NCBI GenBank assembly: GCA_964565945.1
Contig: CAZMGY010000021.1
Coordinates: forward strand, 44,300-108,299
DNA length: 64,000 bases
Direction of reading: 5' to 3'
Source of the DNA: an uncultured bacterium
GTDB taxonomy: Bacteria > GCA-001730085
Below, piece after piece: positions 13,564 to 32,351 of the stretch. The position numbers and the translations under genes were made by a program. The notes beneath the pieces are model-generated. The model was not told the origin of the DNA, ran no database searches, and saw only the letters and a program-made list of their open reading frames with translations. Every line of letters begins with the position of its first letter. The stretch's first letter is position 1.

Positions 13564-13800
13564 TTAGGGATCGCCATTTAATTGGGCAATATCGCCCTTG
13601 AATAATTGCCATATTTGAAGCCCGAGGGCTTTGGCAATCTTTTCAACGGTGCCAATCTCAGGGCTGACTTCTCCGTGTTCAATCGCCCCGATATGGGTGC
13701 GGTGAAGGCCAGCACTCAAAGCCAGAGCTTCCTGCAACCATCTGCGCATCGCCCGAGCCAGCCGGATTTGATCTCCAAGGGTCTGCCGATATGTTTGCAC
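13564..13800 (-). CDS. XRE-family HTH transcriptional regulator
   Basis: 78 aa; 'LSAGLHRTHIGAIEHGEVSPEIGTVEKIAKALG' is a Cro/cI-type HTH. Confidence 0.55.
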   Translation of the reverse strand: MQTYRQTLGDQIRLARAMRRWLQEALALSAGLHRTHIGAIEHGEVSPEIGTVEKIAKALGLQIWQLFKGDIAQLNGDP

Positions 13801-13818: not shown

Positions 13819-13879
13819 TGATTCACATATGAATCATTATTGTAACGTAAAAATACTCCATTGAGTCACATATGGGTCA
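13819..13879. promoter_or_regulatory. paired operator-like palindromes between divergent XRE regulator genes
   Basis: Site 1 TGATTCA-CATA-TGAATCA (13819-13836, perfect 7-bp arms); site 2 TGAGTCA-CATA-TGGGTCA (13862-13879). Both lie in the 85-bp gap between divergently transcribed HTH genes. Confidence 0.5.
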
Positions 13880-13885
13880 AATAAT

Positions 13886-14086
13886 ATGAGCGTTATTATT
13901 CAGCGTTTAGCCATGAATATTCGGCGAAGGAGGGGTGATATATCGCAGCGTGCCTTTGCCAGCAAGCTAGGTATATCTCAATCCACTTTGGCGCGCATAG
14001 AAAACGCTGGCCAGAACACAACGCTCTCGACATTAGAGCAGCTCATGAAATCACTGAAATGCGATATAGGCGGGTTGTTCAAATGA
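13886..14086 (+). CDS. XRE-family HTH transcriptional regulator
   Basis: 66 aa; 'ISQRAFASKLGISQSTLARIENAGQNTTLSTLEQLMKSL' is a canonical XRE HTH. Confidence 0.55.
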   Translation: MSVIIQRLAMNIRRRRGDISQRAFASKLGISQSTLARIENAGQNTTLSTLEQLMKSLKCDIGGLFK

Positions 14087-14430
14087 GGTGTATATATAGT
14101 GAAGTACGGGAGCAGTAGGCAAGGCCGGTAGTTCCCGTCATCGCTTGCCAGCCGGTAAGGTTGCACTCAGGGCATTGTGAGCAACAGCACAATAGTTCCG
14201 CTATTGGTAAGTGCTTACGATGGGCGCAAGAAGTCGGTTGTATTACAAATTTCTGCGAATTTGCCCTCCAACCGCTATCTTGAGAAGGACGTTTCCCCGT
14301 CCGTTCTATCCTCAGGAGGCGCGCTAAGCTATCGAATTATTATTCGAGAGCAAGGGCTTATATGGTGCATTACCGGCATTGAGCCGAGTGCTGCACCAGC
14401 GAACGTGTGGCCGTTCTAATCACCACTTAT

Positions 14431-14545
14431 GGGAGCCTTCAAGCTGCCCCCAAAACCCCCATGATCAGGGGAGACTTCGCTCTCCCCTAAAGCCCCATCG
14501 AGTCAGGAGCCTTCGTGCCCCTAACAACCCAGACCAACCGTACGC
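14431..14545. repeat. degenerate tandem repeat, ~35-bp unit, ~3 copies
   Basis: Adjacent units CCCCCAAAACCCCCATGATCAGGGGAGACTTCG / CCCCTAAAGCCCCATCGAGTCAGGAGCCTTCG / CCCCTAACAACCCAGACCAACCG inside a ~650-bp GC-rich ORF-poor segment. Confidence 0.45.
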
Positions 14546-14733
14546 CGTTTGGATGCCGTGAACATTTCGGTGTTCAATGCCTACCACTGTTTCGTCAGTG
14601 GAAAACGATCAACGAGCGCCCTTGGATGCAACTGAGTTATGAAACGTCATCGCCAATGATGCAATATTCGCTATTGACATAGAGTTCGTTTTCGATTCTA
14701 ATAATCTGCATCATCGTTAATGAAGGAATTATT

Positions 14734-15330
14734 TTGAAGCTCACTGATCTTGCAATTATATCCGCTGGACACCCATTCAGAGGGAAAATACTGGAAAAAT
14801 CCGGTAGCGGTATCCGTGCCGTGCAGATGAAAGACATCTCTATTGATCAGGGTGTTTGTTGGGAGAGCGTTATCGAAACGGAGCTTTCTGGCAAAAAAAA
14901 ACCTGCTTGGCTGATGAATGGGGATATCCTTTTCGCAGCCAGAGGCGCACGTAATTATGCCGTACTGGTAGATCATATTGTAGGGAAAGTCGTTAGTGCT
15001 CCTCATTTCTATATTCTCCGTGTGAACGAGCAATCGCTTTTGCCGGAATTTCTGGTCTGGCAGCTCAATCAAAAACCCCTGCAAAACTATTTCGACAGGG
15101 CAGCGCAAGGGTCGTTTACCAAGAGCATTAAACGCTCAATTTTAGAATGTGCTGAAATCACAGTACCGCCACTAGATAACCAAAAGCAAATCGTAGGCTT
15201 GCACATGACATTGATGCAAGAAAGAAAGCTCTATTCTGAATTGACCAGAAATGCGGATAAGTTAATGAATTCTATTGCCAGCAAACTTGCGGCAGGTAAA
15301 ACTCTACAGTTAAAAGGAATAAAAATATGA
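14734..15330 (+). CDS. hsdS: type I restriction-modification specificity subunit, single-TRD (half-size HsdS)
   Basis: 198 aa; one target-recognition-like region followed by an S-subunit-type conserved helix ('QKQIVGLHMTLMQERKLYSELTRNADKLMNSIA'); stop overlaps the hsdM start (ATGA). Confidence 0.55.
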   Translation: MKLTDLAIISAGHPFRGKILEKSGSGIRAVQMKDISIDQGVCWESVIETELSGKKKPAWLMNGDILFAARGARNYAVLVDHIVGKVVSAPHFYILRVNEQSLLPEFLVWQLNQKPLQNYFDRAAQGSFTKSIKRSILECAEITVPPLDNQKQIVGLHMTLMQERKLYSELTRNADKLMNSIASKLAAGKTLQLKGIKI

Positions 15331-16850
15331 ACACACCAATAAGCCAAGATGCTATCAACAAAGCCTTATGGGGGGCATGCGATACATTCCGTGGCACGGT
15401 CAGCGCTGACACATACAAAGACTTTATCCTAACCATGTTGTTCCTGAAATACATCTCTGATGTTTGGCAGGATCACTATGACAAATACAAAGAAGAGCAT
15501 GGTGACGAGCCAGAGCTTATTCATGAAATGATGAAGAATGAGCGCTTTGTTCTTCCCGATGGATCAAGCTTTTATACCCTTTATGAAAAACGCCATGAAC
15601 CCGGCAATGGTGAGCGTATCGACCAAGCTCTTCACGCATTGGAAGAGGCTAACGGCACTAAGCTTCGTGATGCATCAAAATCCGTGTTTCAGGATATCAG
15701 TTTTAACACTGATAAGCTCGGTGAAGAAAAACAAAAAAACACCATTCTTCGCCACTTGCTGGAAGATTTTGCCAAAGATGAATTAAACCTTCGCCCCAGT
15801 CGTGTTGGATCACTCGATGTGATCGGTAACGCCTACGAATATCTGATTAAGCACTTTGCCGCAGGTGGTGGGCAAAAAGCAGGAGAATTCTATACCCCGC
15901 CCGAAGTATCTGACCTGATTGCAGAATTGCTAGACCCACAAGAAGACGACACAATTTCTGATCCGGCTTGTGGTTCTGGTTCCTTGCTCATGAAATGTGG
16001 TCGTAAAATTAAAAAGCGTTTTAACAGCAAAAAATACGCACTCTACGGGCAAGAAGCTATTGGCTCTACTTGGTCTCTGGCGAAAATGAATATGTTCCTG
16101 CATGGCGAAGACAATCACAAAATAGAGTGGGGAGATACAATCAGAAACCCTAAGCTACTGAATAAGCATGGCGGCTTGATGCATTTTGATATTGTGACGG
16201 CTAATCCTCCATTCAGTCTCGATAAATGGGGGCATGATGAAGCTGATCATGATCCGTTTGGACGTTTTCGTCGTGGTATTCCTCCAAAGACCAAAGGTGA
16301 TTATGCCTTTATTTCGCATATGATCGAAACTATGGAGCCGACTACAGGGCGTATGGGCGTTGTTGTTCCGCATGGTGTTTTGTTTCGTGGTAGCTCAGAA
16401 GGAAAAATCCGCAAACAATTGATAGAAGAAAATTTGCTTGATACGGTGATAGGACTTCCTGAAAAGCTCTTTTACGGTACAGGGATACCGGCGGCGATTC
16501 TGATCTTTAAGAAAAATAAGGCGGATAGCAATGTCCTGTTCATTGATGCCAGCCGTGAATGTAAGACGGGTAAAAACCAAAACCTACTCACGCTTGATAA
16601 TATTAAAAAAATAGTCAAGACATATAAGGTGCGTAAAAGCTTTGATAAATATTCGTATTTGGCCAATTTTGAGGAGATTGAGGAAAACGACTTTAACCTT
16701 AATATCCCGCGTTATGTCGATACTTTTGAAGAGGAAGAAGAAATTGACCTATTGGCAGTGCGTAAAGAGCGTGAAGAACTAAAAACTCAACTCGTCGAAC
16801 TGGAAACGGAAATGGATGGTTATCTCAAGGAGCTGGGTTATGGTTCCTGA
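15327..16850 (+). CDS. hsdM: type I restriction-modification DNA methyltransferase subunit M
   Basis: 507 aa; 'YTPPEVSDLIAELL', 'DPACGSGSLL' (AdoMet motif I) and 'IVTANPPFS' (NPPF motif IV) of N6-adenine MTases. Confidence 0.92.
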   Translation: MNTPISQDAINKALWGACDTFRGTVSADTYKDFILTMLFLKYISDVWQDHYDKYKEEHGDEPELIHEMMKNERFVLPDGSSFYTLYEKRHEPGNGERIDQALHALEEANGTKLRDASKSVFQDISFNTDKLGEEKQKNTILRHLLEDFAKDELNLRPSRVGSLDVIGNAYEYLIKHFAAGGGQKAGEFYTPPEVSDLIAELLDPQEDDTISDPACGSGSLLMKCGRKIKKRFNSKKYALYGQEAIGSTWSLAKMNMFLHGEDNHKIEWGDTIRNPKLLNKHGGLMHFDIVTANPPFSLDKWGHDEADHDPFGRFRRGIPPKTKGDYAFISHMIETMEPTTGRMGVVVPHGVLFRGSSEGKIRKQLIEENLLDTVIGLPEKLFYGTGIPAAILIFKKNKADSNVLFIDASRECKTGKNQNLLTLDNIKKIVKTYKVRKSFDKYSYLANFEEIEENDFNLNIPRYVDTFEEEEEIDLLAVRKEREELKTQLVELETEMDGYLKELGYGS

Positions 16851-18075
16851 TGGGTGGAAAGAAGAAAATCTTGGAACTCTTTTTGAGTTTAAAAATGGCG
16901 CTAATACTGAGGCAGCCAATTACGGTTCTGGAATTAAGTTTGTTAATGTGATGGACGTGTTTGGTAATCACTTTATTACTAGCGAGAAAATTCGTGAAAG
17001 AGTTAATCTGCCTGAAAAAAAGATTAATTTATATTTGTTAAAAATGGGCGACGTATTATTTAATAGAACGTCAGAGGTTTTCGACGAAATTGCTCTAACT
17101 GCTGTTTATATGGATACTTCACCAGCAATATTTGGTGGCTTCGTTATTAGGGGGCGACCTAAGGCTAACGAACTTGACTTTAAATTTTGTATTTATTGTT
17201 TTTCATCTTATAGAGTCCGTAAGGAATCTATAAGAAGAGGGCAAGGGGTAATACGATCGAACATTGGTCAAAAAGACCTACAGTATGTTCCGTTGTTAGT
17301 TCCTCCTATTATAGAACAAAAGAAAATAGCCAAAATATTATTGACTTGGGATCGAGCGATTGAGGTAACAGAAAAACTAATCAGCAATAGTCAGCAACAA
17401 AAAAAGTCCCTCATGCAACAACTCATCACTGGCAAAAAACGCCTTCTGGGATTTAGTGATGAATGGGAAAAGATTCGATTAAAGCCTCTTTTAGAGGAGG
17501 GAAAGGCTAGAAATAAAGATAGTTCAATACAACGAGTATTAAGTGTTACTAATCATAGCGGTTTTGTATTACCAGAAGATCAATTTTCAAAACGTGTGGC
17601 GAGCAGTAATGTCAGTAACTATAAAATAGTTAAACGTGGAGAATTTGCATATAACCCATCTCGTATAAACGTTGGTTCATTTGCGCGTCTTGATGATTAT
17701 GATGAGGGTATTCTTAGCCCAATGTATGTTGTTTTCAGTGTTAAGAAAGATTCGCTATTTAGTGACTTTTTCTTTCAGTGGATGTCATCACATCACGCAA
17801 AACAACGTATTCTTTCAAGTACGCAGGGATCGGTAAGAGATTCAGTCAGTTTTCAAGCACTTTGTGCGTTCCCGTTTTTGCTTCCATCACTAAAAGAACA
17901 ACGAAAAATTGCGTCAGTTCTTTTATCTGCGGATAAAGAAATTGAAACTCTTCAACAAAAACTCGAATACCTCAGCCAAGAAAAAAAGGCGCTGATGCAA
18001 CAACTCCTCACTGGCAAACGCCGTGTGAAAATTGATGAAGATGGTATTTCTCAGAAGGAGGTTGTGCGTGCCTGA
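16840..18075 (+). CDS. hsdS: type I restriction-modification specificity subunit S (two TRDs)
   Basis: Two variable regions, each followed by a conserved repeat ('QKKSLMQQLITGKKRLLGF' and 'EKKALMQQLLTGKRRV'); start overlaps the hsdM 3' end. Confidence 0.85.
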   Translation: MVPDGWKEENLGTLFEFKNGANTEAANYGSGIKFVNVMDVFGNHFITSEKIRERVNLPEKKINLYLLKMGDVLFNRTSEVFDEIALTAVYMDTSPAIFGGFVIRGRPKANELDFKFCIYCFSSYRVRKESIRRGQGVIRSNIGQKDLQYVPLLVPPIIEQKKIAKILLTWDRAIEVTEKLISNSQQQKKSLMQQLITGKKRLLGFSDEWEKIRLKPLLEEGKARNKDSSIQRVLSVTNHSGFVLPEDQFSKRVASSNVSNYKIVKRGEFAYNPSRINVGSFARLDDYDEGILSPMYVVFSVKKDSLFSDFFFQWMSSHHAKQRILSSTQGSVRDSVSFQALCAFPFLLPSLKEQRKIASVLLSADKEIETLQQKLEYLSQEKKALMQQLLTGKRRVKIDEDGISQKEVVRA

Positions 18076-19144
18076 TATTATTTCATTTGAAGCCGCTATT
18101 GCGGAGTCAGAACAATATAAAAAACGTCATTTATTGCTAGGCAATGGTTTTAGTATTGGCTGTCGAGCTGACATATTTCATTATGAGTCTCTTTTTGGGG
18201 AAGCTGATTTTTCGGCAATTCCTGAGGCTAAACAGGTTTTTGAATCTTTACAGACACAGGATTTTGAAGTTGCAATTCGCGCACTTGAGAATGGTTCAAA
18301 AATTCTACCTATCTATGTGCCCAATGATGACGCAAGCGTTCAGGCAATGAGTAATCATGCTATTGCGCTTAAAGATTTGTTAGTTGCCACAATTGCTGGC
18401 AACCATCCTCCTAATCCTAATGCAATAGATGATCCAGAGTTTTGGGCTTGCCGACAGTTTTTAAGTTATTTCCTCGCTTCGGATAAGGGAGGACATGTCT
18501 TCACTCTAAACTATGACTTATTACTGTATTGGGCATTGATGCATGATGACAATCCATTTGATGAGGAAGTGGTGGAGCTGAACAAGAATGATGGGTTCGG
18601 AAATGATGAAGATGATCCAGAAGCGGATTATGTTCTCTGGCAAGGTGAGACCTCCGCGCATAGTGCAAATATACTTTTTCTGCACGGTGCACTTCATCTA
18701 TTTGACTCGGGTGCAGAGCTACAGAAATATACTTGGGTTCGTAAGGGTGAACCATTGGTGGATCAAGCGCGCACTGCAATAGCTGCGAATAAATTCCCTC
18801 TTTTTGTCGCGGAAGGAACAAGTACACAAAAGAAAAACAAAATTCGCCATAACGCATATCTTTACCAGTGTTTTAAGGTTCTGACAGCCAACGCACAGAC
18901 TGGCACGCACTGTTTTTTCATATTTGGACATTCGTTAGCTGATAGTGATGACCACATCCTAAAACGTCTTGGTAAAGGCCGTTTTAAGAAATTATATGTA
19001 GGTATTTTTGGTGATGCGGATACGCCAGAAAATAGGAATGTGATTGCACGCGCAAATGCTATCGCAGCACTTAGACATGATAGGTATCCTCTTGAGGTGG
19101 TGTTTTTCGATTCCTCATCCGCTAATGTTTGGGGGAATGATTAA
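18068..19144 (+). CDS. DUF4917 / SIR2-like domain protein embedded in the type I R-M operon
   Basis: Gly-rich 'LLLGNGFSIG', 'LFLHGALHLFD' and 'IFGHSLADSDDHIL' resemble the SIR2-like/DUF4917 arrangement (from memory, not searched). AGGAGG RBS and GTG at 18068; the track ORF starts at 18032. Overlaps hsdS and hsdR stops/starts. Confidence 0.6.
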   Translation: MPDIISFEAAIAESEQYKKRHLLLGNGFSIGCRADIFHYESLFGEADFSAIPEAKQVFESLQTQDFEVAIRALENGSKILPIYVPNDDASVQAMSNHAIALKDLLVATIAGNHPPNPNAIDDPEFWACRQFLSYFLASDKGGHVFTLNYDLLLYWALMHDDNPFDEEVVELNKNDGFGNDEDDPEADYVLWQGETSAHSANILFLHGALHLFDSGAELQKYTWVRKGEPLVDQARTAIAANKFPLFVAEGTSTQKKNKIRHNAYLYQCFKVLTANAQTGTHCFFIFGHSLADSDDHILKRLGKGRFKKLYVGIFGDADTPENRNVIARANAIAALRHDRYPLEVVFFDSSSANVWGND

Positions 19145-22100
19145 TGGCTTTGATTCCCAAATTCCAAGAAGAATACAGCGCGAAAATTCCAGCATTAACG
19201 CTGCTTCATAATCTTGGTTGGACGTTCTTATCACCCGAGCAAGCTTTATCCGCTCGCAATGGCAAAACCAGTGAGGTGGTTTTACGTGAAGTGTTGAGAG
19301 AAGAACTTCGAAAACGCCGTTTTACTTTTGCAGGGAAAGAACGCGTTTTTTCTGAAAATGCTATTGATAATGTTATTGCGGAACTATGCGCGCCAGCTTT
19401 GAACGAAGGCTTAGGTGTTGCTAATGAAAGAATATATAACCATTTGCTTTATGGTATATCGGTAAAAGAGTTTATTGACGGTAAGAAAGTAAATCCAACA
19501 ATCCAAATTATTGACTGGGACAATGTTGATAATAATAGTTTTCTTTTTACCGAAGAATTTAGTGTTTTAAGAACGGGTGAAGTTGAATCCCGTAGACCAG
19601 ATATTGTTTGTTTTGTGAATGGATTGCCATTTGCAGTGATCGAAGCAAAACGTCCTGATGGTCATACCAATAAGGGATTGACCATTGATGAAGGTATTTC
19701 CCAGAATATCCGCAATCAACGCAATGATGAAATCCCTCATTTATTTGCATACTCCCAACTTCTTTTTTCAATCAATGGGGCTGATGGTCGTTATGGCACG
19801 CAAGGTACATCAAAACCGTTTTGGGCACCTTGGCGCGAAGAAGATATTTCTGAAGGAGAATTTTATATCCTGAAAAATAAAGCATTGAGTTCTGATGCAA
19901 AAGATACACTGTTTTCGCATAGACCAAAGCAGGATCGTAAGTGGTATGAAGAGCTTATAGTTGGTGGCGAACTTGCCGTTACTGAACAAGACAAAATGCT
20001 CATAAGTCTTCTTTCTCCATCACGGTTGATTGAAATGACAAGATATTTTGTATTGTTCGATAAAAAAATAGGGAAAGTGGCAGCACGATATCAGCAAGTA
20101 TTTGGTATTAAGCGTCTGATCGAGAGAATTAATACAAAAGATAATAAGGGCGTGCGTCAGGGTGGTGTTATATGGCACACCACTGGCTCTGGTAAATCTT
20201 TTACCATGGTCTTCTTGTCGAAAGCTCTTATCTTGCATGGCTCATTGAAGCAGTGCCGTATCGTGGTCGTAACTGATCGTGTTGATTTGGAAAGCCAGTT
20301 AAGTACGACCTTTAGTACAGGCGGAGAACTTGCCAGCAAGAAGGATAAAGCAGCCGCTATTGCAACATCTGGAAGAATGTTAGCAGAACAGATTTCTAAA
20401 GGTAATGAGCGAATAATGTTTTCTATTATTAACAAATTTGCTGTCGCCGCCAAAATGCAAGAGTGTCATAACCTAAGCTCTGACATTATCGTTCTTATTG
20501 ATGAAGGACATCGTTCGCAAGGCGGTGAAAACTTTATCCGTATGCGCAATGCTCTGCCTAATGCAGCTTTTATTGCATTTACAGGAACGCCGTTGTTAAA
20601 AGATGATAAAACGGAAAATAAATTCGGCTCGATTGTTCATGCCTATACGATGCAAAGAGCAGTTGAAGACAAAGCTGTTACACCTCTGCTATATGAAGAA
20701 CGTATCCCTGATCTTGATGTAAATGAACGAGCGATTGATAGTTGGTTTGATCGGATTACAGAGGGTCTCACAGATGAGCAGAAGACGGATTTAAAAAAGA
20801 AATTTGCCAAGAAAGGACACCTTTATCAATCCGAAGATCGTATTCGTTTGATTGCTTATGATATAGCTAATCATTTTGTGAAGAATATTGATGATGGACT
20901 TAAGGGGCAGATTGCTTGTGATAGTAAATTATCAGCCATTAAATATAAGCAATTCATGGATGAGCTTGGTCTGTTTAAATCTGCGGTTGTAATGTCTGCG
21001 CCAGATACCAGAGAGGGCAACACAGATGTTGATGAAGCTACTATCCATGAGGTGGCTAAGTGGTGGAAGGAAAATGTAGGATCACAGGATGAGAAAAGTT
21101 ACACAAAAAATATTGTTAAGCGATTTGAGGAAGATAATGACCTTAAAATTATAATCGTAGTTGATAAGTTACTTACTGGATTTGATGAACCGAGAAATAC
21201 AGTTCTTTACATTGATAAGCCCCTCAAAGAGCACAGCCTGATTCAAGCTATAGCGCGAGTTAATCGTTTGCATGAGAAAAAGAAATTCGGTTTGCTTATT
21301 GATTATCGCGGTATTCTGGCAGAGCTTGATACCACAATAGCTAAATATCAGGATTTGGCTAGCCGTACTCAAGGTAGATTTGATATTGAAGACCTTGAAG
21401 GTCTCTATCAACAAATGAGCACCGAATATAAAAAACTACCGCGTTTGTATAAAGATTTATTAGCAATATTCAAGAATGTTAAAAATAAAGGCGATATTGA
21501 ACAGCTTCGTCAGGTTATAGTTCCAAAAGTACAAGAACAACATGGTGAAATGGTAGATATTAATTTAAAAGCACGTGAAGACTTCTATGATCGATTAAGT
21601 GAGTTTGCTAATTGTTTGAAAGTTGCTTTGCAATCAGCTAGTTTTTATGAAGATAAAAGCTTCACAGAACAGGACAGAAAGCACTACAAAGAAACTGTTA
21701 AACAATATTCATCATTGCGTCAACTTGCCAAGGCTGATGCGGGTGAGACAGTCGATTACGACGAATATGCCGAGCAAGTAAAGAAGCTGATGGATAAGCA
21801 TGTTGTCGGTGTGGAGGTTAAAGAACCTGATGGTGTTTATGAAGTAGGTAAGATGGGTAAATCTGATCCAAAAGACTGGTCAGAAGATAAAACTCGAAAC
21901 GAAACCGATATTATAAAAACTCGTATTACTCGCATGATAGAGCAAAGCTTGCGTGATGATCCTTATGCGCAAGAAGTTTTTTCTAAGCTACTTAAGCAGG
22001 TAATAGAGGAAGCAGAAACCTTGTTTGACCATCCGTTGAAGCAATACATGCTGTTTAAAGAATTTGAAGAAAAAGTCGAAAAACGTGAAGTCGATAGTTT

Positions 22101-22419
22101 GCCTGATAAGTTTGCAGATAATAAGCACGCACAAGCCTACTATGGTGTTTTGAAAATGTATGTTGGCGAAAACCTTTCTACCATAGATGAAGAACTATCT
22201 GACCGATGGGTGGGGCTTTCTTTCAATGTAGATGAGATTATTACGAATGCTATAGCCGAGCACTCAATAAATCCCCAAAACATTGAATCCGAAATTCGAA
22301 ACAAGCTACTTCCTATGATCTTTAGTGAGTGTAAGAAAGTAGGTTCAGGAATAGATCAGACTAAGGCAATAACTGAAAGAATTGTTCAGATTGTACGCGT
22401 AGGACTAAATCACTCATGA
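19144..22419 (+). CDS. hsdR: type I restriction enzyme R subunit (endonuclease/helicase)
   Basis: 1091 aa; helicase Walker A 'TTGSGKSFTM' and DEAD-box-like 'VLIDEGHRSQ'; start overlaps the upstream stop (TAATG). Confidence 0.92.
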   Translation: MALIPKFQEEYSAKIPALTLLHNLGWTFLSPEQALSARNGKTSEVVLREVLREELRKRRFTFAGKERVFSENAIDNVIAELCAPALNEGLGVANERIYNHLLYGISVKEFIDGKKVNPTIQIIDWDNVDNNSFLFTEEFSVLRTGEVESRRPDIVCFVNGLPFAVIEAKRPDGHTNKGLTIDEGISQNIRNQRNDEIPHLFAYSQLLFSINGADGRYGTQGTSKPFWAPWREEDISEGEFYILKNKALSSDAKDTLFSHRPKQDRKWYEELIVGGELAVTEQDKMLISLLSPSRLIEMTRYFVLFDKKIGKVAARYQQVFGIKRLIERINTKDNKGVRQGGVIWHTTGSGKSFTMVFLSKALILHGSLKQCRIVVVTDRVDLESQLSTTFSTGGELASKKDKAAAIATSGRMLAEQISKGNERIMFSIINKFAVAAKMQECHNLSSDIIVLIDEGHRSQGGENFIRMRNALPNAAFIAFTGTPLLKDDKTENKFGSIVHAYTMQRAVEDKAVTPLLYEERIPDLDVNERAIDSWFDRITEGLTDEQKTDLKKKFAKKGHLYQSEDRIRLIAYDIANHFVKNIDDGLKGQIACDSKLSAIKYKQFMDELGLFKSAVVMSAPDTREGNTDVDEATIHEVAKWWKENVGSQDEKSYTKNIVKRFEEDNDLKIIIVVDKLLTGFDEPRNTVLYIDKPLKEHSLIQAIARVNRLHEKKKFGLLIDYRGILAELDTTIAKYQDLASRTQGRFDIEDLEGLYQQMSTEYKKLPRLYKDLLAIFKNVKNKGDIEQLRQVIVPKVQEQHGEMVDINLKAREDFYDRLSEFANCLKVALQSASFYEDKSFTEQDRKHYKETVKQYSSLRQLAKADAGETVDYDEYAEQVKKLMDKHVVGVEVKEPDGVYEVGKMGKSDPKDWSEDKTRNETDIIKTRITRMIEQSLRDDPYAQEVFSKLLKQVIEEAETLFDHPLKQYMLFKEFEEKVEKREVDSLPDKFADNKHAQAYYGVLKMYVGENLSTIDEELSDRWVGLSFNVDEIITNAIAEHSINPQNIESEIRNKLLPMIFSECKKVGSGIDQTKAITERIVQIVRVGLNHS

Positions 22420-23165
22420 GGAATTTAGCTACACACAGGAATGGTTCAATTCAATATGGAGATACAGCCATTAATTTTTCTATTGAACCCAGAGCAACAG
22501 ATGCACCAAAAGTTTTAATAAAAGTACATCCAGATTGCCGCGTTGTAGCACTTGCACCACCGATGGCATCTCATGATGAAATTATGCAGGCGGTAAAGAA
22601 ACGAGCACGATGGGTTTGTAAACAAATGCGGTACTTTGATAAACAACGCGAAAATATTCTCCCGCGTCACTATGTTAGTGGCGAAAGTCATTTCTATCTT
22701 GGGCGTAGGCATCTATTAAAGGTTCAAGAAAATGCTCAAGATACTCCCAAGGTGAAGTTGCTACGGGGTGTTTTGGAAGTTCAAGTACGCAAAGTAAGCC
22801 CAGAAAAAATAAAAGCAATGCTTTTTGATTGGTATAGAGTTCGTGCTAAAGAAGTATTTGATCGTAGGCTAGAAGAAGTTGTTTCTAAAACATTGTGGGT
22901 AAATGATAAGCCATCTATTCACCTTCTTTCTATGCAGACGCAATGGGGGAGTTGCTCGCCGAAAGGTCAGTTGACAATTAATCCTCATTTGGTGAAAGCA
23001 CCAAGAGATTGTATTGATTATGTGCTACTTCATGAGCTTTGCCATATTGCAGAACATAATCATAGTGAACGGTTCTATCGGCTAATGAAGCAAGTTATGC
23101 CTCATTGGGAAAAAGTAAAAGAAAGACTCGATGGTATGGCTTACTTTTATTTGAACGATACTTAA
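22416..23165 (+). CDS. M48-family zinc metallopeptidase (DUF45/YgjP-like), R-M associated
   Basis: 249 aa; HExxH zinc motif in 'YVLLHELCHIAEHNHSERF'; ATGA overlap with the hsdR stop. Confidence 0.8.
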   Translation: MRNLATHRNGSIQYGDTAINFSIEPRATDAPKVLIKVHPDCRVVALAPPMASHDEIMQAVKKRARWVCKQMRYFDKQRENILPRHYVSGESHFYLGRRHLLKVQENAQDTPKVKLLRGVLEVQVRKVSPEKIKAMLFDWYRVRAKEVFDRRLEEVVSKTLWVNDKPSIHLLSMQTQWGSCSPKGQLTINPHLVKAPRDCIDYVLLHELCHIAEHNHSERFYRLMKQVMPHWEKVKERLDGMAYFYLNDT

Positions 23166-23283: not shown

Positions 23284-26200
23284 TTGGGGAAAAAAGAAGC
23301 AAGGCGCACTAAGTCAAAGTCAACACCGCGTCAAACAGGTGGGGCAGGATACGACTTCGAAGATTTGATTGCAGCCTGGATGATGGTGAAGATGCTGCGT
23401 GAGATTAGGTTGCCAGGTGTTGAGGAGTTTGGTACAGCGATTCAATGGCAAGCGGAAGTGTTAGGTTGGGAACAGATCGATGACCTTCTGGTTACATGTG
23501 TGGTTGAAGAAGAAAAGAAAAAGCAGCTAGCCATCTCTTGTAAAAGCAACATGCAAGTTAGTGGGTCTGGGCTTCCATTTGATTTTCTCAAAAATGCTTG
23601 GTCACTATGGATAAAAGGCGAGCCTTTTAATAAGGAAAATGATTGCATGATGTTGGTTCAGAAAGGCAGCAATCAAAATTTTTTTACTGCTTGGGCAGAC
23701 CTAAAATATTGGTGTTCTGAGGGCGATGTAGAAACGGCTCTAGCACGAATTACAGCTTCTCAGAAACATAGTAAAATATACAATGGCGTTAAGGCTCCTG
23801 ATAAAAGCAGTAATTATACAAACGAAGATACTATTGCGCTTATACGCAGTTTAGAAGTTATTCCTGCAGATTTTCATTTAGCTAGTTCGGAATACGAAGA
23901 CACTTCATTATCCCATTGTCGTGATCTTTTGCAGGATGGCTCTGAAGAGACTGCAAAAAAGCTATGGGACTGGCTTCTCAAGAAAGCTAAAGTCAAACGT
24001 ATCTCAGGTGGAACATTACAGCTATCAGAGTTGTGGCAAGAATTGGTTCCAGCATTTGATTTAAAAGACCATCCAAACTTTCTTTCATCATGGAAGTCTC
24101 TTAAAGCTATATCCGAAGAATATAAGAGATCAATCGAAATTGAATTGCCTAATGGTCATAGTGTCATAAGGCCTGCCGAAGAAGACCTGATAGAGCATCT
24201 TAGAGATGGTCCAATATGTATTGTATATGGTAGCTCTGGAAGGGGTAAATCGGCGGTTGTTAAATCTACTTTAGATAAGAAGCTATCTGATTGGAATCAG
24301 GTTTGGTTTTCTCCGGAAAACCTAGACTTAGCTTCAAGTGAAAGGACTCGCTCAGAAGTGGGATTGCTTAGACCTTTGCAGGATGTACTTGCTCACTCAT
24401 CGGAAGAAAAAAATGTCCTAATTATAGATTCTGCTGAGAGGATTAACCCCGATAGCAGAAAAATTGTAAAGTCGCTTATTTCCAACCTATTGATACACAA
24501 TGGCGAACAGAAGAGTCGTTTGAACTGGCGAGTTATCATTGTTGGGCAAACCGAGGCTTGGGCATCTGGCAATTTTCATGAAATTTCAGGACTCTCTTCT
24601 ATTCAGCCTATAGAAATTTCTTCCCTTGACCCTTCGGATGTCAGAGCAGCTTTGCATTCAAGCAATCACTTATCTTGGCTTGCTTCGGATAACGAAGCGC
24701 TTATAGCCTTAGGTAACTTGAAAACTTTGGCTTGGGTAATGCGAGCTGGAACCATTTTTCCAAAAGGGGGAATGAATAGCATATCGTTGCCTGCAATCGC
24801 TGATCGTTTATGGTCGTATTGGACAAAAGATAAAATAAAACTTCAGAATCTTCTGATGCAACTTGCTGAACGTGAAGCTCAATTTGAACGTAGCTTTCCT
24901 ATCAGTGGGTTTGGTATTGATGTAAGCCAAGCTCTTGATGAAGGTTTGGAATGCTTGCCACTACGAAAAAGAAAAGAGACTAATTCAATCGAGTTTGAGC
25001 ATGACCTGGGTGCTGATTGGGCAAGGTTTCAGCGTTTAAAAGAAATAAAAAATGACATAAGCTCTTGGGCACCATTTGCTAGCAACCCTCTCTGGCATAA
25101 TGCTTTGCGCATGATGGGGCAACTCCTATTACGAGAAAAAACTGAACAAGGAACACTATGGGATGTTGTTTATGATGAAGCAGAAAAAACAAAAGTTGAA
25201 AATCCTTTAGCAGCAGATATTCTCTTAGATTCTTTGTGCCTTGATCCATTTGCTGCGCATTATCTTAATGAGCGGTCGGATATACTTTTTGCAGATAACG
25301 GGGCTCGTTTAAACCGCTTATTAAAACGTTTTCATCATATAGCGACCGTTTCAAATGTCTCTAGCGAGTCCTTGGACATTGATCCCTCGCTAAAATTGTA
25401 TTTAGAAGACATGCAAAGGTTGCCAATCTATGGTCGTTGGCCACAAATTGCACAATTTCTTTCAGATCACAAAGAACAAGTTTCCAGCCTAATCTCACCA
25501 ACTATTTCAAAACTATGTGAGACTTGGCTTACAACAACACCTCTCTATCTTGATCCTGAGGCAAATACGCCGATGCCCTATAGAAAGGTATTTGCAGAGC
25601 TTGCTTTAAGCACGGTAAGGACTTTACAACTTGAGCAAAAGAAAGGGCACTTGTGGCTCACAGATGACAGCGAAAAGCCTCTTTATGGGGCAGCATTTGC
25701 GGCTGTAAACGATCTTCCTGACGAAGTCTGCGAATGGGCTTTAGAAATGGCCTGTAGAAGACCTTGCAAAAAAGAAATACCTGAAGCGCTTGCAGCCTAT
25801 CGAGAAGAAAGAAGAAAAGAACATAGAGAAAAATTGCGCACTGATAAGGCTTATCCTGAAAGGCACGAGCGTTTACGTTCAATGCCTTCCGGTATTTCAA
25901 GCCATAGAGATTTACCTCCATGGCCATTAGGGCCACAAGGTAGTGTAGATAATACTTTTCGAGATTATTGCTTGAACTCAAACTCCATGGCTAGGCTGAT
26001 GTATCTAAGGCCAGAAGTTGCAAGCGAGTGCCTTCTTGCAATGCTAATAGATTATTCGCGTAGCCCTCTCCGAGATGATTTAGGTCTAGTGTATAGTCAC
26101 ACAGGATACCCTACGGCATATTGGAAAAGTCCATTTTTCCAGTTTTTACAGTTGAATAGCACTATAGCCATGGATTCCCTTATTTCGCTCGTTAATTTTT

Positions 26201-28536
26201 GTACAGATCGATGGGCAGATGATTTTGAGAGCGATTATAGTCTAGAGGTAAGTCTACGAGATGGTCAAAAACAAAGTTTGAAAGGAAACGGACATGTTTT
26301 CTCCTGGTCTCAAGAAAGCTCCACATCTAACGGACAGCTCTACTGTGCGTTAGCAGCACTAGAAAAATGGATTTATATTGAAATTGATAAGGACGCAGAT
26401 GTAGAGCCTGCGCTCAAGAGACTTATCGAAAACTCAAATTCTGTTGCAATAATAGGCGTGCTCCTAAATGTCGGTAAATACAAACCAAGCTTATTTACAA
26501 GCGCATTACAACCTTTTTTAGGGGTATATGAATTCTATCAAGCCGATGACAACCGCCTTCTAGATGCCGGGCATTGGTATGATGCTGGGGCATGGCCGTG
26601 TGAGGGTGAAAAAATATTTGAAATGGCCAAAGAGTGGCACTTTGCTCCGCACCGGAAAATTCCGTTGCGGCAATTAGCTGTTCAACTTGCTCTCAGTGAT
26701 AAAGAGACAGCCTCTTTTATTAAGGAAGCTTCTGAAAGTTGGGAAACACATTCAGTCGAGGAAAAATATGATTTAGAGGTAAGGATATTAAAAGCTGAAC
26801 TTGATCCTGAAAATTATAAGCCAGAAAAAGACCAACAATCTGGGCAGACATTATTGAGGTGTTATTACCCAGACAAGCTACAGAAGGACATAGAAGATTT
26901 TCAGAAAAGAAAAAGTCCGAGATGGCATGCTGTTACTATACCTATTCAATGTGAAGAATTATTGGCTTCGTCTCATAACATTACTGATGAAGAGGCTGAG
27001 AGATTAGCTTCTGCACTCAATGTTGTTCCTATAGAAGAAGATGAAGAGAGCATCCTCGCGACAGAAGCGGCGATCGCAGCTACGTTGTTAATAAAGGCAC
27101 CTAGCTGGCTAGACAAAAACCCTGATCTTAAAAAGAAAACAAATGAAATTATTCAAAATATAATTTCTAGTATTGGAGACACCTTAGAATCTTTGAGAGC
27201 TACCGGACATCTTATGAGTGATAGGTCGCTTGCCTTTGCCACTCATGTTGTTGTTGAAGAATTTATAAACAACCCGTCCCATGATAGGGACGTAGATGCT
27301 TCTGTATTAAGAATTTTAACCAGTGGTGACAACCAGGCTGTCTTCATTTTGATGAATGCGGCTTATCAAAATAGAGATAAGCTAGGTGATCGCTGGTGGC
27401 GTCTCATACAAATATCAATCTTTTGTGCTGGACTTAATAGCCTTAGTCCGGGCTTTAGAGAAGATGAAGATAAATCGATTGAATTACGTTGGGCGCGTTG
27501 GTTGATATGGTTGCGCACCCGTGATTTAAACGTTTCAGTAAATGCAGAAGCTATTGACCCAATCGGATTAGCGGTTCGTGTGGATCGTTTAAAAATGGCT
27601 CGTATTAAACGGCTATTTGGAAAAGATACAGACGGACGTTTGCGTTACTATCATCGAGGGTTTTTTGGCCTTGAGACCTACACGTTGGATAAAATGTTTT
27701 CATGGATGCTGAGTGATCATGGGCAAGGGGCTGACAATAGTTCGGATGTGCGTCTCTTAACTCAAAAACTTTGGGTGTTCGAAGCTTGGAGAAAGCAAAA
27801 AAGCGAAGAAGCCAACGATGAAGATAATGACCGTGATAGCCTTCCAAGCGATTTAGGTTACTCGCTTCTTCAAAAGCTATCAAAGCTTATGCTGACTGCA
27901 CAAAAAGATGAAGCGTCTAAGATTTGGAAGCCGATACTTTCTATGGGCGTAGATGGTCATCATTCTATTGAGCATTTCATTGATGGGTGGCTGCTAGGAG
28001 TGGTTCAAACCAAAAATACAAACTCCCTTTCTCAGTTTTGGAGAGAATTAATTGAGTTTGCGCTCTTATCTCCCAACTGGTCTCCCAATAAATATTGGTA
28101 TAAAGGAGAAGAGTTATTTCGACATCTTTTAGGATTTGGCTTGATTAATCTTGCGGAGTTTGAAGGTGCTCAAAACATTATTTTCGAAATAAAGGATCTG
28201 TATAAACGTTGGGCTGATACACACCTTTCTCAGGAAGAGGAAAATATAGCAGGCTTTGCATATTTTCTTTCCTCTAAAGTGGGGGCACCTATTCGGTATG
28301 ATGGTCTGCTGTGGATCAGAGACTCCTTGCGACCTCCCAATCCTGCATATTGGCGTCGAATGGAAACCGGACGCTCTCTTGTTGATCTTTTGGATGTTAT
28401 CATTACCGAAGAAACTAAACAAATATCTTCAGATTCTGAGTTTCGCGATGCGTTATTGAGGGTTGCAGCACATTTGGCTGATAGGCAAGTTCCTATTGCA
28501 TTATTGTTGCAAGAGAAGATTCGCCAGGTGCATTAG
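23284..28536 (+). CDS. very large (1750 aa) P-loop NTPase of unknown function; candidate defense protein
   Basis: Single uninterrupted ORF, AAGGAG RBS and apparent TTG start; Walker A 'YGSSGRGKSAVVKS' near residue ~320 and Walker B-like 'VLIIDSAERI' ~60 aa later; long helical C-terminus; no family recognised by eye. Confidence 0.8.
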   Translation: MGKKEARRTKSKSTPRQTGGAGYDFEDLIAAWMMVKMLREIRLPGVEEFGTAIQWQAEVLGWEQIDDLLVTCVVEEEKKKQLAISCKSNMQVSGSGLPFDFLKNAWSLWIKGEPFNKENDCMMLVQKGSNQNFFTAWADLKYWCSEGDVETALARITASQKHSKIYNGVKAPDKSSNYTNEDTIALIRSLEVIPADFHLASSEYEDTSLSHCRDLLQDGSEETAKKLWDWLLKKAKVKRISGGTLQLSELWQELVPAFDLKDHPNFLSSWKSLKAISEEYKRSIEIELPNGHSVIRPAEEDLIEHLRDGPICIVYGSSGRGKSAVVKSTLDKKLSDWNQVWFSPENLDLASSERTRSEVGLLRPLQDVLAHSSEEKNVLIIDSAERINPDSRKIVKSLISNLLIHNGEQKSRLNWRVIIVGQTEAWASGNFHEISGLSSIQPIEISSLDPSDVRAALHSSNHLSWLASDNEALIALGNLKTLAWVMRAGTIFPKGGMNSISLPAIADRLWSYWTKDKIKLQNLLMQLAEREAQFERSFPISGFGIDVSQALDEGLECLPLRKRKETNSIEFEHDLGADWARFQRLKEIKNDISSWAPFASNPLWHNALRMMGQLLLREKTEQGTLWDVVYDEAEKTKVENPLAADILLDSLCLDPFAAHYLNERSDILFADNGARLNRLLKRFHHIATVSNVSSESLDIDPSLKLYLEDMQRLPIYGRWPQIAQFLSDHKEQVSSLISPTISKLCETWLTTTPLYLDPEANTPMPYRKVFAELALSTVRTLQLEQKKGHLWLTDDSEKPLYGAAFAAVNDLPDEVCEWALEMACRRPCKKEIPEALAAYREERRKEHREKLRTDKAYPERHERLRSMPSGISSHRDLPPWPLGPQGSVDNTFRDYCLNSNSMARLMYLRPEVASECLLAMLIDYSRSPLRDDLGLVYSHTGYPTAYWKSPFFQFLQLNSTIAMDSLISLVNFCTDRWADDFESDYSLEVSLRDGQKQSLKGNGHVFSWSQESSTSNGQLYCALAALEKWIYIEIDKDADVEPALKRLIENSNSVAIIGVLLNVGKYKPSLFTSALQPFLGVYEFYQADDNRLLDAGHWYDAGAWPCEGEKIFEMAKEWHFAPHRKIPLRQLAVQLALSDKETASFIKEASESWETHSVEEKYDLEVRILKAELDPENYKPEKDQQSGQTLLRCYYPDKLQKDIEDFQKRKSPRWHAVTIPIQCEELLASSHNITDEEAERLASALNVVPIEEDEESILATEAAIAATLLIKAPSWLDKNPDLKKKTNEIIQNIISSIGDTLESLRATGHLMSDRSLAFATHVVVEEFINNPSHDRDVDASVLRILTSGDNQAVFILMNAAYQNRDKLGDRWWRLIQISIFCAGLNSLSPGFREDEDKSIELRWARWLIWLRTRDLNVSVNAEAIDPIGLAVRVDRLKMARIKRLFGKDTDGRLRYYHRGFFGLETYTLDKMFSWMLSDHGQGADNSSDVRLLTQKLWVFEAWRKQKSEEANDEDNDRDSLPSDLGYSLLQKLSKLMLTAQKDEASKIWKPILSMGVDGHHSIEHFIDGWLLGVVQTKNTNSLSQFWRELIEFALLSPNWSPNKYWYKGEELFRHLLGFGLINLAEFEGAQNIIFEIKDLYKRWADTHLSQEEENIAGFAYFLSSKVGAPIRYDGLLWIRDSLRPPNPAYWRRMETGRSLVDLLDVIITEETKQISSDSEFRDALLRVAAHLADRQVPIALLLQEKIRQVH

Positions 28537-29558: not shown

Positions 29559-30071
29559 ATGAGTGCAGAAATTAGAATTTATGTGGCATGTTTGGCAGCG
29601 TATAACGGCGGTAGATTGCATGGCGTTTGGATTGACGCAACCGATGAGCTGGACGATATTCAAGAGCAAGTAAATATGATGCTAAAAGAAAGCCCAGAGC
29701 CAGACGCAGAAGAATGGGCGATACATGATTACGAGGGTTTTGGTGGTTATAGCGTTAGCGAATATTCAGGGTTTGAAGAGCTTCACGATGTTGCGTCTTT
29801 TATTGAAGAATATCCAGAAATTGGTGGGGAGCTTTTAGATCATTGCTCAGACCTTGAAGAAGCCAGGAAAGCCATAGAAGAAAGCTATGCAGGATGCCAT
29901 AAATCACTTGCAGATTTTGCCGAGGAAACAACCGAGGAAACAACCGAAATTCCTGAGCATTTACGGTATTACATTGATTATGAAAAAATGGGGCGTGATA
30001 TGGAAATGAGCGGAGACGTTTACACAATTGAAACAGGTTATGAGGAAGTGCATATATTTTGGAATCATTAA
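29559..30071 (+). CDS. ardA: antirestriction protein ArdA
   Basis: 170 aa, acidic; 'IYVACLAAYNGGRLHGVWIDATD', 'EEWAIHDYEGFGG' and 'LRYYIDYEKMGRDMEMSGDVYTIE' parallel the conserved ArdA blocks (e.g. Tn916 ArdA). Confidence 0.85.
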   Translation: MSAEIRIYVACLAAYNGGRLHGVWIDATDELDDIQEQVNMMLKESPEPDAEEWAIHDYEGFGGYSVSEYSGFEELHDVASFIEEYPEIGGELLDHCSDLEEARKAIEESYAGCHKSLADFAEETTEETTEIPEHLRYYIDYEKMGRDMEMSGDVYTIETGYEEVHIFWNH

Positions 30072-31625: not shown

Positions 31626-32351
31626 ATGAGTATTGCACAAGCCATTGAAAATTCGGTTAAATCCATGCCTTCTGGCCAGATTTTTGGCTATCAGGAGTTG
31701 CCTAGCTACGCTAAATCACCAGGGGCTGTGATTAAGGCGATTAGCCGTCTGGTGGCTGATAAGAGGTTGGAACGGTTTTCTAAGGGCAAGTTTTACGTAC
31801 CCAAAAAAGGCATGTTAGGTGCTAGAAAACCCTCAGATAGTGAGTTGATCCGTTCAATGTTGTACAAGGACGGGCGTTTGCGTGGTTATGTGACTGGCCT
31901 ATCTCTCTATAATCAACTGGGTCTTACAACGCAGGTGCCGCGCACAATTACGGTTGCCTATAACGGTGGTCGTCAGAAAAAAGAATATGGAACAATTCGT
32001 ATTAAGACGGTCGTTACACGTGTTCCGATTAAGGAAAAGGACGTTAAGCTTCTTCAATATTTGGACGCGCTTAAAGACATAAAAAAAATTCTAGATTCTG
32101 ATGTAAATCTTTCTCTTAAGATTATTCGCGGCTATATATCTAAGTTATCTGATCGTGAGCGTAGTCGTTTGGTGGAACTGGCGCTAAATTACTATAACCC
32201 TCAAGTCAGAGCATTGGTTGGCTTATTGTTCACAGATTTAAAACTCTCGGTTCCAAGCTCTTTGGCTCACTCACTTAACCCAACAACGACCTATAAGCTT
32301 AAGCTGGATCGCTCAATGTGGCCAATGGCCAAAGAATGGAATATCCAATAA
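31626..32351 (+). CDS. AbiEi-like antitoxin / regulator (partner of the AbiEii nucleotidyltransferase)
   Basis: 241-aa gene with GGAG RBS; stop overlaps the AbiEii start (TAATG). Assignment is mainly by operon partner; the sequence may equally be a DUF6088-type partner. Confidence 0.5.
   Translation: MSIAQAIENSVKSMPSGQIFGYQELPSYAKSPGAVIKAISRLVADKRLERFSKGKFYVPKKGMLGARKPSDSELIRSMLYKDGRLRGYVTGLSLYNQLGLTTQVPRTITVAYNGGRQKKEYGTIRIKTVVTRVPIKEKDVKLLQYLDALKDIKKILDSDVNLSLKIIRGYISKLSDRERSRLVELALNYYNPQVRALVGLLFTDLKLSVPSSLAHSLNPTTTYKLKLDRSMWPMAKEWNIQ

Follow-up and report, generated by a model that had tools for sequence, protein, structure and literature searches.

A conserved half-S gene as the candidate controller of a type I restriction-modification operon with a cargo slot

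Closest described systems

The control of type I restriction-modification (R-M) systems was long held to be post-translational only, until in 2025 RptR was reported as the first transcriptional repressor dedicated to such a system. RptR is encoded by the first gene of the RRDM island of enteropathogenic Escherichia coli (EPEC) E2348/69 (RptR-HsdM-HsdS-DarT-DarG-HsdR-M48), which is active against phages and in which the authors call the site between hsdS and hsdR a likely hotspot (Zhang et al., 2025, PMC12255303). The locus described here is a six-gene type I R-M operon at positions 14734–23165 of a 64,000-nt stretch of DNA from an uncultured bacterium (contig CAZMGY010000021.1, positions 44,300 to 108,299, assembly GCA_964565945.1), the whole of which is referred to below as the window. 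It has the same hsdM-hsdS-[cargo]-hsdR-M48 skeleton as the EPEC island and likewise carries a small first gene upstream of hsdM and repeated palindromic sites that overlap the promoter (PMC12255303), the family link resting on this layout and on the E. coli relatives of the same hsdM. Whereas RptR is a 79-aa helical repressor that binds TAGCTA, the first gene here encodes a 198-aa protein with the fold of a specificity (S) subunit, half-S, accompanied by 21-bp palindromes, and the cargo is a DUF4917 gene rather than DarTG2 (PMC12255303). The gene directly upstream of the window hsdM is half-S and no small helical repressor of the kind that RptR is described to be. The operon is an ordinary member of a published operon type, and its conserved half-S is most likely a regulator of it and not a left-behind specificity module.

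Staphylococcal hsdRSMS systems also possess an ~190-aa gene with a single target recognition domain (TRD) directly upstream of hsdM and a two-TRD hsdS that overlaps the hsdM 3′ end; in no case is the short S contained in a long S (Schiffer et al., 2023, PMC10030836). They differ in that hsdR comes first and in that there is neither an M48 gene nor cargo; in the one staphylococcal plasmid inspected no operator pair was found, only the hsdR terminator hairpin. In Staphylococcus xylosus, whose hsdS_short is the only experimentally studied analogue that was found, absence of this gene leaves the motif of hsdS_long poorly methylated, its presence adds no palindromic motif, and the function proposed for the short S is stabilisation of the methyltransferase, not regulation (PMC10030836). 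Half-HsdS proteins engineered from type IC systems (EcoR124I-NT and EcoDXXI derivatives; PMC3874165, PMC3320862) similarly consist of one TRD and a helix, form a homodimeric S-like body and have a symmetric 4+5+4 target geometry, GAAY-N5-RTTC (PMC3874165). These are laboratory truncations that replace the full S, whereas half-S is a natural separate gene beside a full S, with a candidate target that lies at the promoter only. The S. pyogenes (Streptococcus pyogenes) protein Esub1 (8VSQ/8VSR; PMC11754733) is a crystallographic homodimer formed via the C-terminal helix, with two identical TRD-like heads and the shape of a full S, and its authors suggested a transcription-factor-like role. It differs from half-S in sequence (16% identity), in being encoded by an orphan gene far from hsd genes, and in an insertion helix that is bound by the phage protein Prx (PMC11754733). 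A single same-strand gene between hsdS and hsdR, as found here, is also the arrangement of embedded defence genes such as PrrC in EcoprrI and the PADLOC PDCs (Payne et al., 2024), the PDC models having been built on genes that sit inside BREX, DISARM or type I R-M loci (10.1101/2024.01.29.577857).

Half-S as a conserved stand-alone gene

The operon family was sampled by a scan for HsdM with one genome per species, which yielded 80 loci (HsdM 80–91% identical), and the open reading frames (ORFs) of these relatives were labelled by script from their similarity to the window proteins. An S-like ORF of ~190–226 aa lies directly upstream of hsdM in 54 of the 78 loci with enough upstream sequence; 40 of the 78 carry the form found in the window (class A), 14 carry a second form (class B) and 24 are without half-S. 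The class B protein, as found on an Acinetobacter plasmid, is 28% identical to that of the window, and its helix appears by eye to be well conserved within the class. In metagenomes, hsdM directly follows half-S in all 67 loci with enough downstream sequence, and every half-S relative whose context was read lies upstream of hsdM; on all contigs that extend far enough, a full hsdS comes after it.

A word-indexed search returned 136 half-S relatives, and the 120 listed are 160–227 aa long. An exhaustive phmmer search of 1.84 billion representative proteins (50%-identity clusters) gave 4803 matches at E<=1e-3, and at least 127 distinct clusters at E<=1e-30. The best 150 of the 4803 matches range from 89 to 270 aa, save one 716-aa half-S::HsdM fusion, and include no two-TRD HsdS. 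In the fusion protein (P0248) a class A-like half-S (residues 17–189) is joined by an ~50-residue linker to a full HsdM; this may be a genuine gene fusion or, in a high-GC organism, the product of a frameshift or assembly error. The AlphaFold2 model of the window half-S (mean predicted local distance difference test, pLDDT, 91.6) comprises one TRD and a 48-residue helix, and its best match among solved structures is Esub1 (Foldseek E 8e-12, template modelling (TM) score ~0.70–0.74). As judged from these matches, half-S is a member of a distinct family of short S proteins of ~190–225 aa, each with a TRD and one helix and encoded upstream of hsdM.

In the preliminary description of this DNA the half-S gene was considered to be either an alternative specificity module or a remnant of S-gene shuffling, with no invertase nearby. 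Indeed, none adjoins the operon, and the nearest recombinase genes are ~10 kb away. A functionless, decaying hsdS remnant produced by TRD shuffling or truncation would be in keeping with the public records, which annotate only a "restriction endonuclease subunit S", and with the weak score of half-S against Pfam Methylase_S (26.7 bits). Set against this are dN/dS (nonsynonymous to synonymous substitution rate) ratios of 0.10–0.26 for half-S in 12 pairs (0.03–0.09 for hsdM in the same pairs), which point to purifying selection, an intact frame and kept position in well over 100 loci of Alpha-, Beta- and Gammaproteobacteria, the number of distinct clusters, and a conserved promoter architecture of its own. 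The hallmarks of a shufflon or phase-variable hsdS are also missing: the half-S gene and hsdS share no DNA repeat and no recombinase adjoins them. Because of the conservation, the dN/dS values, the uniformly short relatives and the lack of repeats in common with hsdS, the remnant or shuffling reading was rejected as far as sequence comparison can reach, and we consider it very improbable.

The surroundings of class B genes vary. In six loci (L018, L022, L082, L085, L086 and L003) the class B half-S is preceded by an ~95-aa Cas2-like ORF of ferredoxin type (MKVYQINYDLR...; weak Pfam Cas2), and in L038, L042, L046 and L066 by an unrelated ORF of 136–138 aa instead. These small ORFs are in turn preceded by an element different from that of class A, which combines a GC-rich palindrome, GCGACAGGTGGCAGCCTGTCGC, with CTACTGTAT boxes similar to one half of a LexA site.

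Predicted promoter and paired operator-like palindromes

The class A family consensus upstream of half-S is a 21-bp palindrome, TGCATCAT-N5-ATGATGCA, two copies of which flank TTGACA. The corresponding features of the window are as follows.

14644–14663, no strand: distal operator-like palindrome ACGTCATCGCCAATGATGCA, just upstream of the -35 box
14674–14702, plus strand: predicted sigma-70-like promoter read from the sequence, TTGACA (14674–14679), 17-nt spacer, TCTAAT (14697–14702)
14707–14723, no strand: proximal operator-like palindrome TGCATCATCGTTAATGA, between the -10 region and the Shine-Dalgarno sequence, its right arm entering the Shine-Dalgarno GAAGGA
14734–15330, plus strand: half-S (class A), 198 aa, TTG start; single TRD and one long C-terminal helix; Pfam Methylase_S, PADLOC Specificity_I

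The palindrome was detected in a search for bipartite inverted repeats in the 300 nt upstream of half-S genes, in which TCAT-N5-ATGA occurred at 24 of the 40 class A loci, as against a maximum of 4 in shuffles, and at none of the 14 class B loci. When up to 3 of the 16 consensus positions are allowed to differ, at least one operator copy is present in 31 of 41 class A genome loci and two copies in 20, positioned at -27 to -35 and -86 to -104 relative to the half-S start, compared with a background of 0.0055 per kb elsewhere in the same loci. The consensus is found in none of the 14 class B loci and none of the 27 loci without half-S. This pattern was replicated in 61 independent, non-redundant metagenome loci obtained by a half-S alignment scan, 45 of which have at least one copy and 30 at least two. 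TTGAC lies between the palindromes in 33 of the 41 genome loci, and TTGAC[ATG] in 52 of the 61 metagenome loci. A consensus scan for promoters and terminators gave counts not above those in shuffles and missed the TTGACA/TCTAAT pair because position 2 of its -10 box is C.

In distant half-S clades on plasmids, the 8-N5/6-8 layout around TTGACA is kept while both arms have changed symmetrically, the pattern to be predicted if a symmetric dimer recognises the site. The operator is TGCATGAA-N5-TTCATGCA in Gluconobacter, CTCTGTAT-N5-ATACAGAG in Mameliella (with a second, similar copy), GTCTGTAG-N6-CTACAGAC in Mesorhizobium (with a second copy) and TGCTGTAA-N5-TATACAGCA in Methylocystis, and those of Bartonella and Proteus are still of the TGCATCAT type. 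Base 7 of the half-site is A in every variant, giving two symmetric adenines 8–9 bp apart, a spacing also seen in the EcoR124I-NT target GAAY-N5-RTTC (PMC3874165). The genes upstream of the operon vary between loci and include no other regulator common to them, so that half-S alone among the gene products is found wherever the operator is. In particular, no conserved helix-turn-helix regulator was found upstream of half-S; the XRE genes of the window are not kept with the operon, and only a few loci have generic XRE matches.

Half-S as proposed controller of the operon

From this co-occurrence and co-variation, together with gene position and fold, we infer that class A half-S acts through the operator pair as the controller of its own operon, an intact type I operon with a cargo slot; we hold this reading with middling confidence, neither favouring nor doubting it strongly. 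Half-S would dimerise through its single long helix to form an S-like body with two identical DNA-binding heads, and the homodimer, alone or with two HsdM subunits, would bind the two 21-bp palindromes flanking the TTGACA promoter, resulting in negative autoregulation of the operon. Half-S would then take the part that the repressor RptR plays as first gene in relatives without half-S. HsdM2·HsdS would methylate a bipartite target whose sequence is determined by the hypervariable TRD pair of HsdS and, together with HsdR, restrict unmodified DNA, these roles being established for the protein families. The wider proposal, that a large family of S-fold proteins has been recruited as transcriptional controllers of type I operons, with protein and operator co-evolving clade by clade, is more tentative, and we lean slightly against it; under this proposal operon expression could also be tied to the level of HsdM or to methylation of the operator.

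Several points weigh against a controlling role. The operators lie in the promoter of the half-S gene itself and would be co-inherited with it even if another protein binds them. Binding of the palindromes by half-S is read from sequence, and the promoter and transcription start are predictions. The conserved half-sites of 8 bp exceed the 3–5 bp usual for one TRD. A minority of class A loci (among them L035, L068, L076, L142, L144, L145 and L155) lack the palindrome and have instead a non-palindromic repeat, GTGCAGTA-N6/7-AAGAAAC, in two copies at the same two positions around TTGACA, an element that is unexplained by a simple homodimer model. Furthermore, canonical S subunits require HsdM for DNA binding (reviewed in PMC3874165), the staphylococcal short S acted after transcription, on methylation efficiency (PMC10030836), and Esub1 of S. 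pyogenes showed no clear HsdM binding (PMC11754733).

If half-S does control the operon, it would represent a second, unrelated solution to control within the same operon family, made from the specificity fold. It would be to type I systems what C-proteins are to type II systems, with the DNA-recognition module of the system itself as its raw material. Thousands of genes annotated as "restriction endonuclease subunit S" would then have been misread as specificity determinants, which matters for the assignment of methylome motifs to genes, and both staphylococcal hsdS_short and orphan half-S proteins like Esub1 could be explained in a way open to testing. In the open-access literature on S-fold regulators or operators of type I operons only RptR was found; a short-S family tied to a co-varying operator pair is not described in the literature searched, the operon type itself being already published.

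Second specificity or assembly factor as possible alternatives

It could be proposed instead that half-S confers a second specificity, the homodimer with two HsdM (and two HsdR) subunits methylating and restricting a palindromic bipartite site such as TCAT-N5-ATGA genome-wide; the promoter palindromes would then be two instances of this site, perhaps serving methylation-sensitive control. Engineered type IC half-S proteins do precisely this, as shown for EcoR124I-NT and the EcoDXXI derivatives (PMC3874165, PMC3320862). The adenines of TCAT-N5-ATGA are 8 bp apart, a geometry as in EcoR124I-NT, and the HsdM of the window is EcoR124-like. The half-S helix is as long as each helix of the cognate HsdS and aligns with them without gaps, one half-S::HsdM fusion exists, and the presence of two half-S classes and of variant clades indicates some diversification.

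Several features of the proteins speak against this idea. Across 69 relatives the TRDs of HsdS are hypervariable and its helices conserved, the median pairwise identity being 17% for TRD1 and 16% for TRD2 (97% of pairs below 30%) and 78% and 69% for the conserved helices CR1 and CR2. The half-S TRD, with a median identity of 46%, is far less variable than these neighbouring TRDs; the half-S helix has a median of 31%, both half-S medians pooling class A and class B, and the medians for HsdM, HsdR and the M48 peptidase are 86%, 76% and 64%, respectively. In spite of its equal length, the helix of half-S shares no more than ~25% identity with those of the cognate HsdS, which are themselves so well conserved, and among its best 150 relatives half-S has never recombined into a two-TRD S gene.

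The operator itself also fits poorly with a modification site, since its 16 specified bases are far more than in a type I site and it is essentially restricted to the promoter. Away from the promoter, the window has 2 sites of TCAT-N5-ATGA, as against 1.7 expected for the whole window; this absence of depletion or enrichment lends a genome-wide target no support and does not help in choosing between a regulator and a restriction specificity. In addition, the S. xylosus hsdSMS construct gave rise to no extra palindromic motif (PMC10030836), and ~30% of close relatives manage without half-S, the EPEC island being active nonetheless (PMC12255303). The alternative specificity module of the preliminary description is therefore retained as a rival that we consider unlikely; it is no longer the best explanation given a TRD that is not hypervariable, an operator pair of its own and a staphylococcal analogue that yields no extra palindromic motif.

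Half-S might also be an assembly or fidelity factor for HsdM2·HsdS, as proposed for staphylococcal hsdS_short, in which case the palindromes would be bound by something else. The S. xylosus hsdS_short (191 aa) lies directly upstream of hsdM, is conserved, is never found within a long S, and is needed for full and correct methylation of the hsdS_long motif at equal transcript levels (PMC10030836); moreover, the S. xylosus HsdM is 43% identical to that of the window over its full length, and the synteny is the same. The similarity between the staphylococcal and window half-S proteins is only marginal, however (BLASTP E 2e-4 over 69 aa; hhalign probability 78%), and orthology with S. xylosus hsdS_short was dropped for that reason. 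Many close relatives whose HsdM is 85–87% identical have no half-S. The identity of HsdM and HsdR is equal within and between half-S classes, which suggests that half-S is a patchy accessory to which HsdM is not adapted, and a class-specific operator pair that co-varies with the clade would be left unexplained. On balance we judge an assembly role to be as improbable as a second specificity.

Operon layout and core subunits

Downstream of half-S, the operon consists of the following genes.

15327–16850, plus strand: hsdM, 507 aa, N6-adenine methyltransferase subunit; HsdM_N and N6_Mtase; TIGR00497
16840–18075, plus strand: hsdS, 411 aa from ATG 16840; two Methylase_S stretches; PADLOC Specificity_I
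18068–19144, plus strand: DUF4917 cargo gene, 358 aa from GTG 18068; PF16263, PDC-S21
19144–22419, plus strand: hsdR, 1091 aa, restriction/translocase subunit; HSDR_N, SWI2_SNF2, T1R_D3-like; TIGR00348
22416–23165, plus strand: YgjP-like (M48/SprT/WLM-related) zinc peptidase, 249 aa; PF01863; intact HELCH

The preliminary description had the six genes overlapping by 1–11 nt, and this was confirmed, with all six on the plus strand and overlaps of 4, 11, 8, 1 and 4 nt. Half-S starts at TTG 14734, with GAAGGA upstream, and its junction with hsdM is an ATGA (15327–15330; 4-nt overlap). The hsdS gene starts at ATG 16840, with AAGGAG 6 nt upstream, and overlaps hsdM by 11 nt (stop 16850). DUF4917 most likely starts at GTG 18068, with AAGGAGG 6 nt upstream, giving an 8-nt overlap with hsdS (stop 18075); the alternative start at TTG 18032, which corresponds to the longest ORF, would extend the overlap to 44 nt. 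DUF4917 and hsdR meet in TAATG (1-nt overlap at 19144), and hsdR and the M48 gene in ATGA (22416–22419; 4-nt overlap). These starts, including the equivalent of 18068, match an independent gene call on identical contigs (Logan assemblies). The ATGA junction between half-S and hsdM was found again in 13 loci, the spacing of the two genes being mostly -4 to +100 nt, and the 11-nt hsdM/hsdS overlap in 33 related loci, so that by this recurrence the overlaps are taken to be conserved family traits rather than chance. ORF coordinates and domain searches thus bear out the reading of the locus as a type I R-M operon that is translationally coupled and includes DUF4917 and M48/DUF45 peptidase genes. 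The preliminary description did not identify the layout as that of a common, already known family with a cargo slot (PMC12255303; 10.1101/2024.01.29.577857).

By its domain matches, the locus is an intact type I R-M operon with separate genes for HsdM (275 bits against TIGR00497, cut-off 242.75), a two-TRD HsdS (PADLOC Specificity_I, E 5e-103) and HsdR (476 bits against TIGR00348, cut-off 284.55). Among solved structures the nearest to HsdM are PacII M and 3LKD, followed by EcoR124II M (E 4.5e-66, full length), whereas EcoKI M is a far weaker, partial match (E 2.6e-25); by this comparison of HsdM with solved structures the family is probably EcoR124-like (type IC-related). The gene order (M-S-...-R in a single operon) differs from that of EcoR124, in which hsdR is driven by its own promoter. 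The only repeat found is a 42-nt direct repeat inside hsdS, corresponding to CR1 and CR2 (17395–17436 and 17977–18018).

Related loci have the common skeleton hsdM-hsdS-(0–4 variable genes)-hsdR-M48. The 80 loci come from many Gamma- and Betaproteobacteria and from a few metagenome-assembled genomes (MAGs) labelled as other phyla, and the same layout is found on plasmids of Acinetobacter, Gluconobacter, Proteus, Bartonella and Vibrio, a distribution by which the operon family is considered widespread and horizontally mobile. Of 5426 complete E. coli genomes, 451 contain a relative of this hsdM; the four inspected have the order hsdM-hsdS-(cargo)-hsdR-M48 and no half-S. In a DNA search of E. 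coli genomes and plasmids only hsdM was matched (73–76%). Some loci have extra genes, namely RhuM, Fic or Bro-N between hsdM and hsdS, or Bro-N between half-S and hsdM.

Cargo slot, DUF4917 and the M48 peptidase

The gap between hsdS and hsdR has a median of 2.3 kb. It is occupied in 54 of 58 loci, by cargo that nearly always shares the strand of the operon. When 109 cargo proteins were searched with Pfam, the domains identified were SMODS/AGS_C with SLATT_6, RhuM, AAA_21/AAA_15 (AbiEii-type) ATPases and SEC-C/UPF0149, as well as Schlafen-AlbA_2, GmrSD, MoxR-VWA, Abi_2, KAP NTPase, KwaB and DUF4917, the last with four members, that of the window included. By these assignments the gap is a cargo slot that holds other defence genes in relatives. 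Whatever the role of half-S, the locus represents a clean example of an hsdS-hsdR cargo slot, in which DUF4917/PDC-S21 and the linked M48 peptidase are candidate defence components.

The DUF4917 protein matches PF16263 (E 1.6e-66) and the PADLOC candidate PDC-S21 (E 2.4e-119), and weakly Pfam SIR2_2 (E 0.0088). Its AlphaFold2 model (pLDDT 66.6) is poor over residues 148–227, and the best matches of the model in the Protein Data Bank are the antiphage SIR2 proteins of SIR2-HerA and SPARSA (E 1e-5 to 1e-2, TM ~0.45); a sequence search against solved structures gave no match. The only characterised member of the family, SliP of Campylobacter jejuni, is described as a secreted sirtuin deacetylase (PMC10421069). 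Given the SIR2-like model, the weak SIR2_2 match and the report of SliP as a sirtuin, we infer that DUF4917 may be a second-line abortive-infection effector that consumes nicotinamide adenine dinucleotide (NAD) and is co-expressed with the R-M genes. A SIR2 or NADase role is weakened by the middling confidence of the model and by the description of SliP as a deacetylase (PMC10421069), and no report of phage-defence activity of PDC-S21 or DUF4917 was found in the literature accessible to search.

The family is very large and well conserved (4757 matches at E<=1e-10, the best 120 at 67–90% identity), and its members occur as a stand-alone gene in a prophage (L185), beside an HD/HD_assoc gene (L186), and in the same operon type in Hyphomonas (L187), where the operon also has a class A half-S with its operator. 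DUF4917 twice adjoins such an HD/HD_assoc (dGTPase-like) gene, stand-alone at L186:9074-10408 and inside the type I operon at L187:6629-7990, which suggests that the two may form a two-gene module in some lineages.

The peptidase matches PF01863 (E 3.4e-55). In 49 of the 50 loci where this could be judged, the gene directly after hsdR is M48, and all 55 sequences compared have HELCH unchanged. Comparison with solved structures gave only proabylysin, weakly, and a literature search found nothing on the function of YgjP/M48 peptidases in type I systems. The strict linkage to hsdR and the SprT/WLM-like motif have led us to speculate that the peptidase might act on the R-M complex itself, removing stalled or excess HsdR.

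The surrounding mobile element

The operon sits on an integrative mobile element beside a tRNA-Met gene (3287–3363). The element contains serine-recombinase pieces, a TraG-like coupling protein, a relaxase, ArdA, an AbiEi/AbiEii pair and an Avs4-like gene. A minus-strand ORF at 3320–4198, which encodes a recombinase zinc-ribbon domain, overlaps the tRNA-Met gene; beside it, at 4478–5011, lies a separate ORF with a resolvase domain, and a further recombinase-domain fragment is present at 37328–37750. It appears that the serine recombinase has been split, or exists in duplicate, at the element's two ends.

Upstream of the operon are divergent XRE-family genes (13564–13800, minus strand, and 13886–14086, plus strand), with the 18-bp palindromes TGATTCACATATGAATCA (13819–13836) and TGAGTCACATATGGGTCA (13862–13879) between them, which look like operators of the XRE pair. 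The operator of the R-M operon is preceded by a 650-nt spacer, of which 14340–14600 is non-coding and GC-richer. Over 255 nt this stretch is 80% identical to a Nitrosomonas MAG (L010:7316-7567), where the corresponding region encodes a 110-aa ORF before a HEPN/RES-domain gene; in the window it is frameshifted and looks like a pseudogene remnant. Three CCCC(A/T)AA..CCCA repeats are located at 14448–14531. An Rfam search of the whole window and of the spacer at 14050–14760 returned only the tRNA-Met, with no RNA family in the spacer.

Downstream, 118 nt after the peptidase gene, 23284–28536 (plus strand) encodes a 1750-aa STAND/AAA_16 protein with a P-loop near residue 300, whose similarity to Avs4 is weak (NCBIfam E 1.6e-20, far below cut-off; PADLOC Avs4 E 2.9e-16). 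It is followed by an ArdA anti-restriction gene (29559–30071, plus strand; PF07275 E 4.8e-48), which places ArdA on the same element as the R-M operon. Since ArdA inhibits type I enzymes, the pairing is curious; ArdA is also found just downstream of the same operon type in the Hyphomonas locus (L187:14528-14780). Further cargo of defence type comprises a 347-aa protein with an N-terminal SEC-C motif (30350–31393, plus strand) and a toxin-antitoxin pair of DUF6088 (AbiEi-like) and AbiEii nucleotidyltransferase (31626–33151, plus strand).

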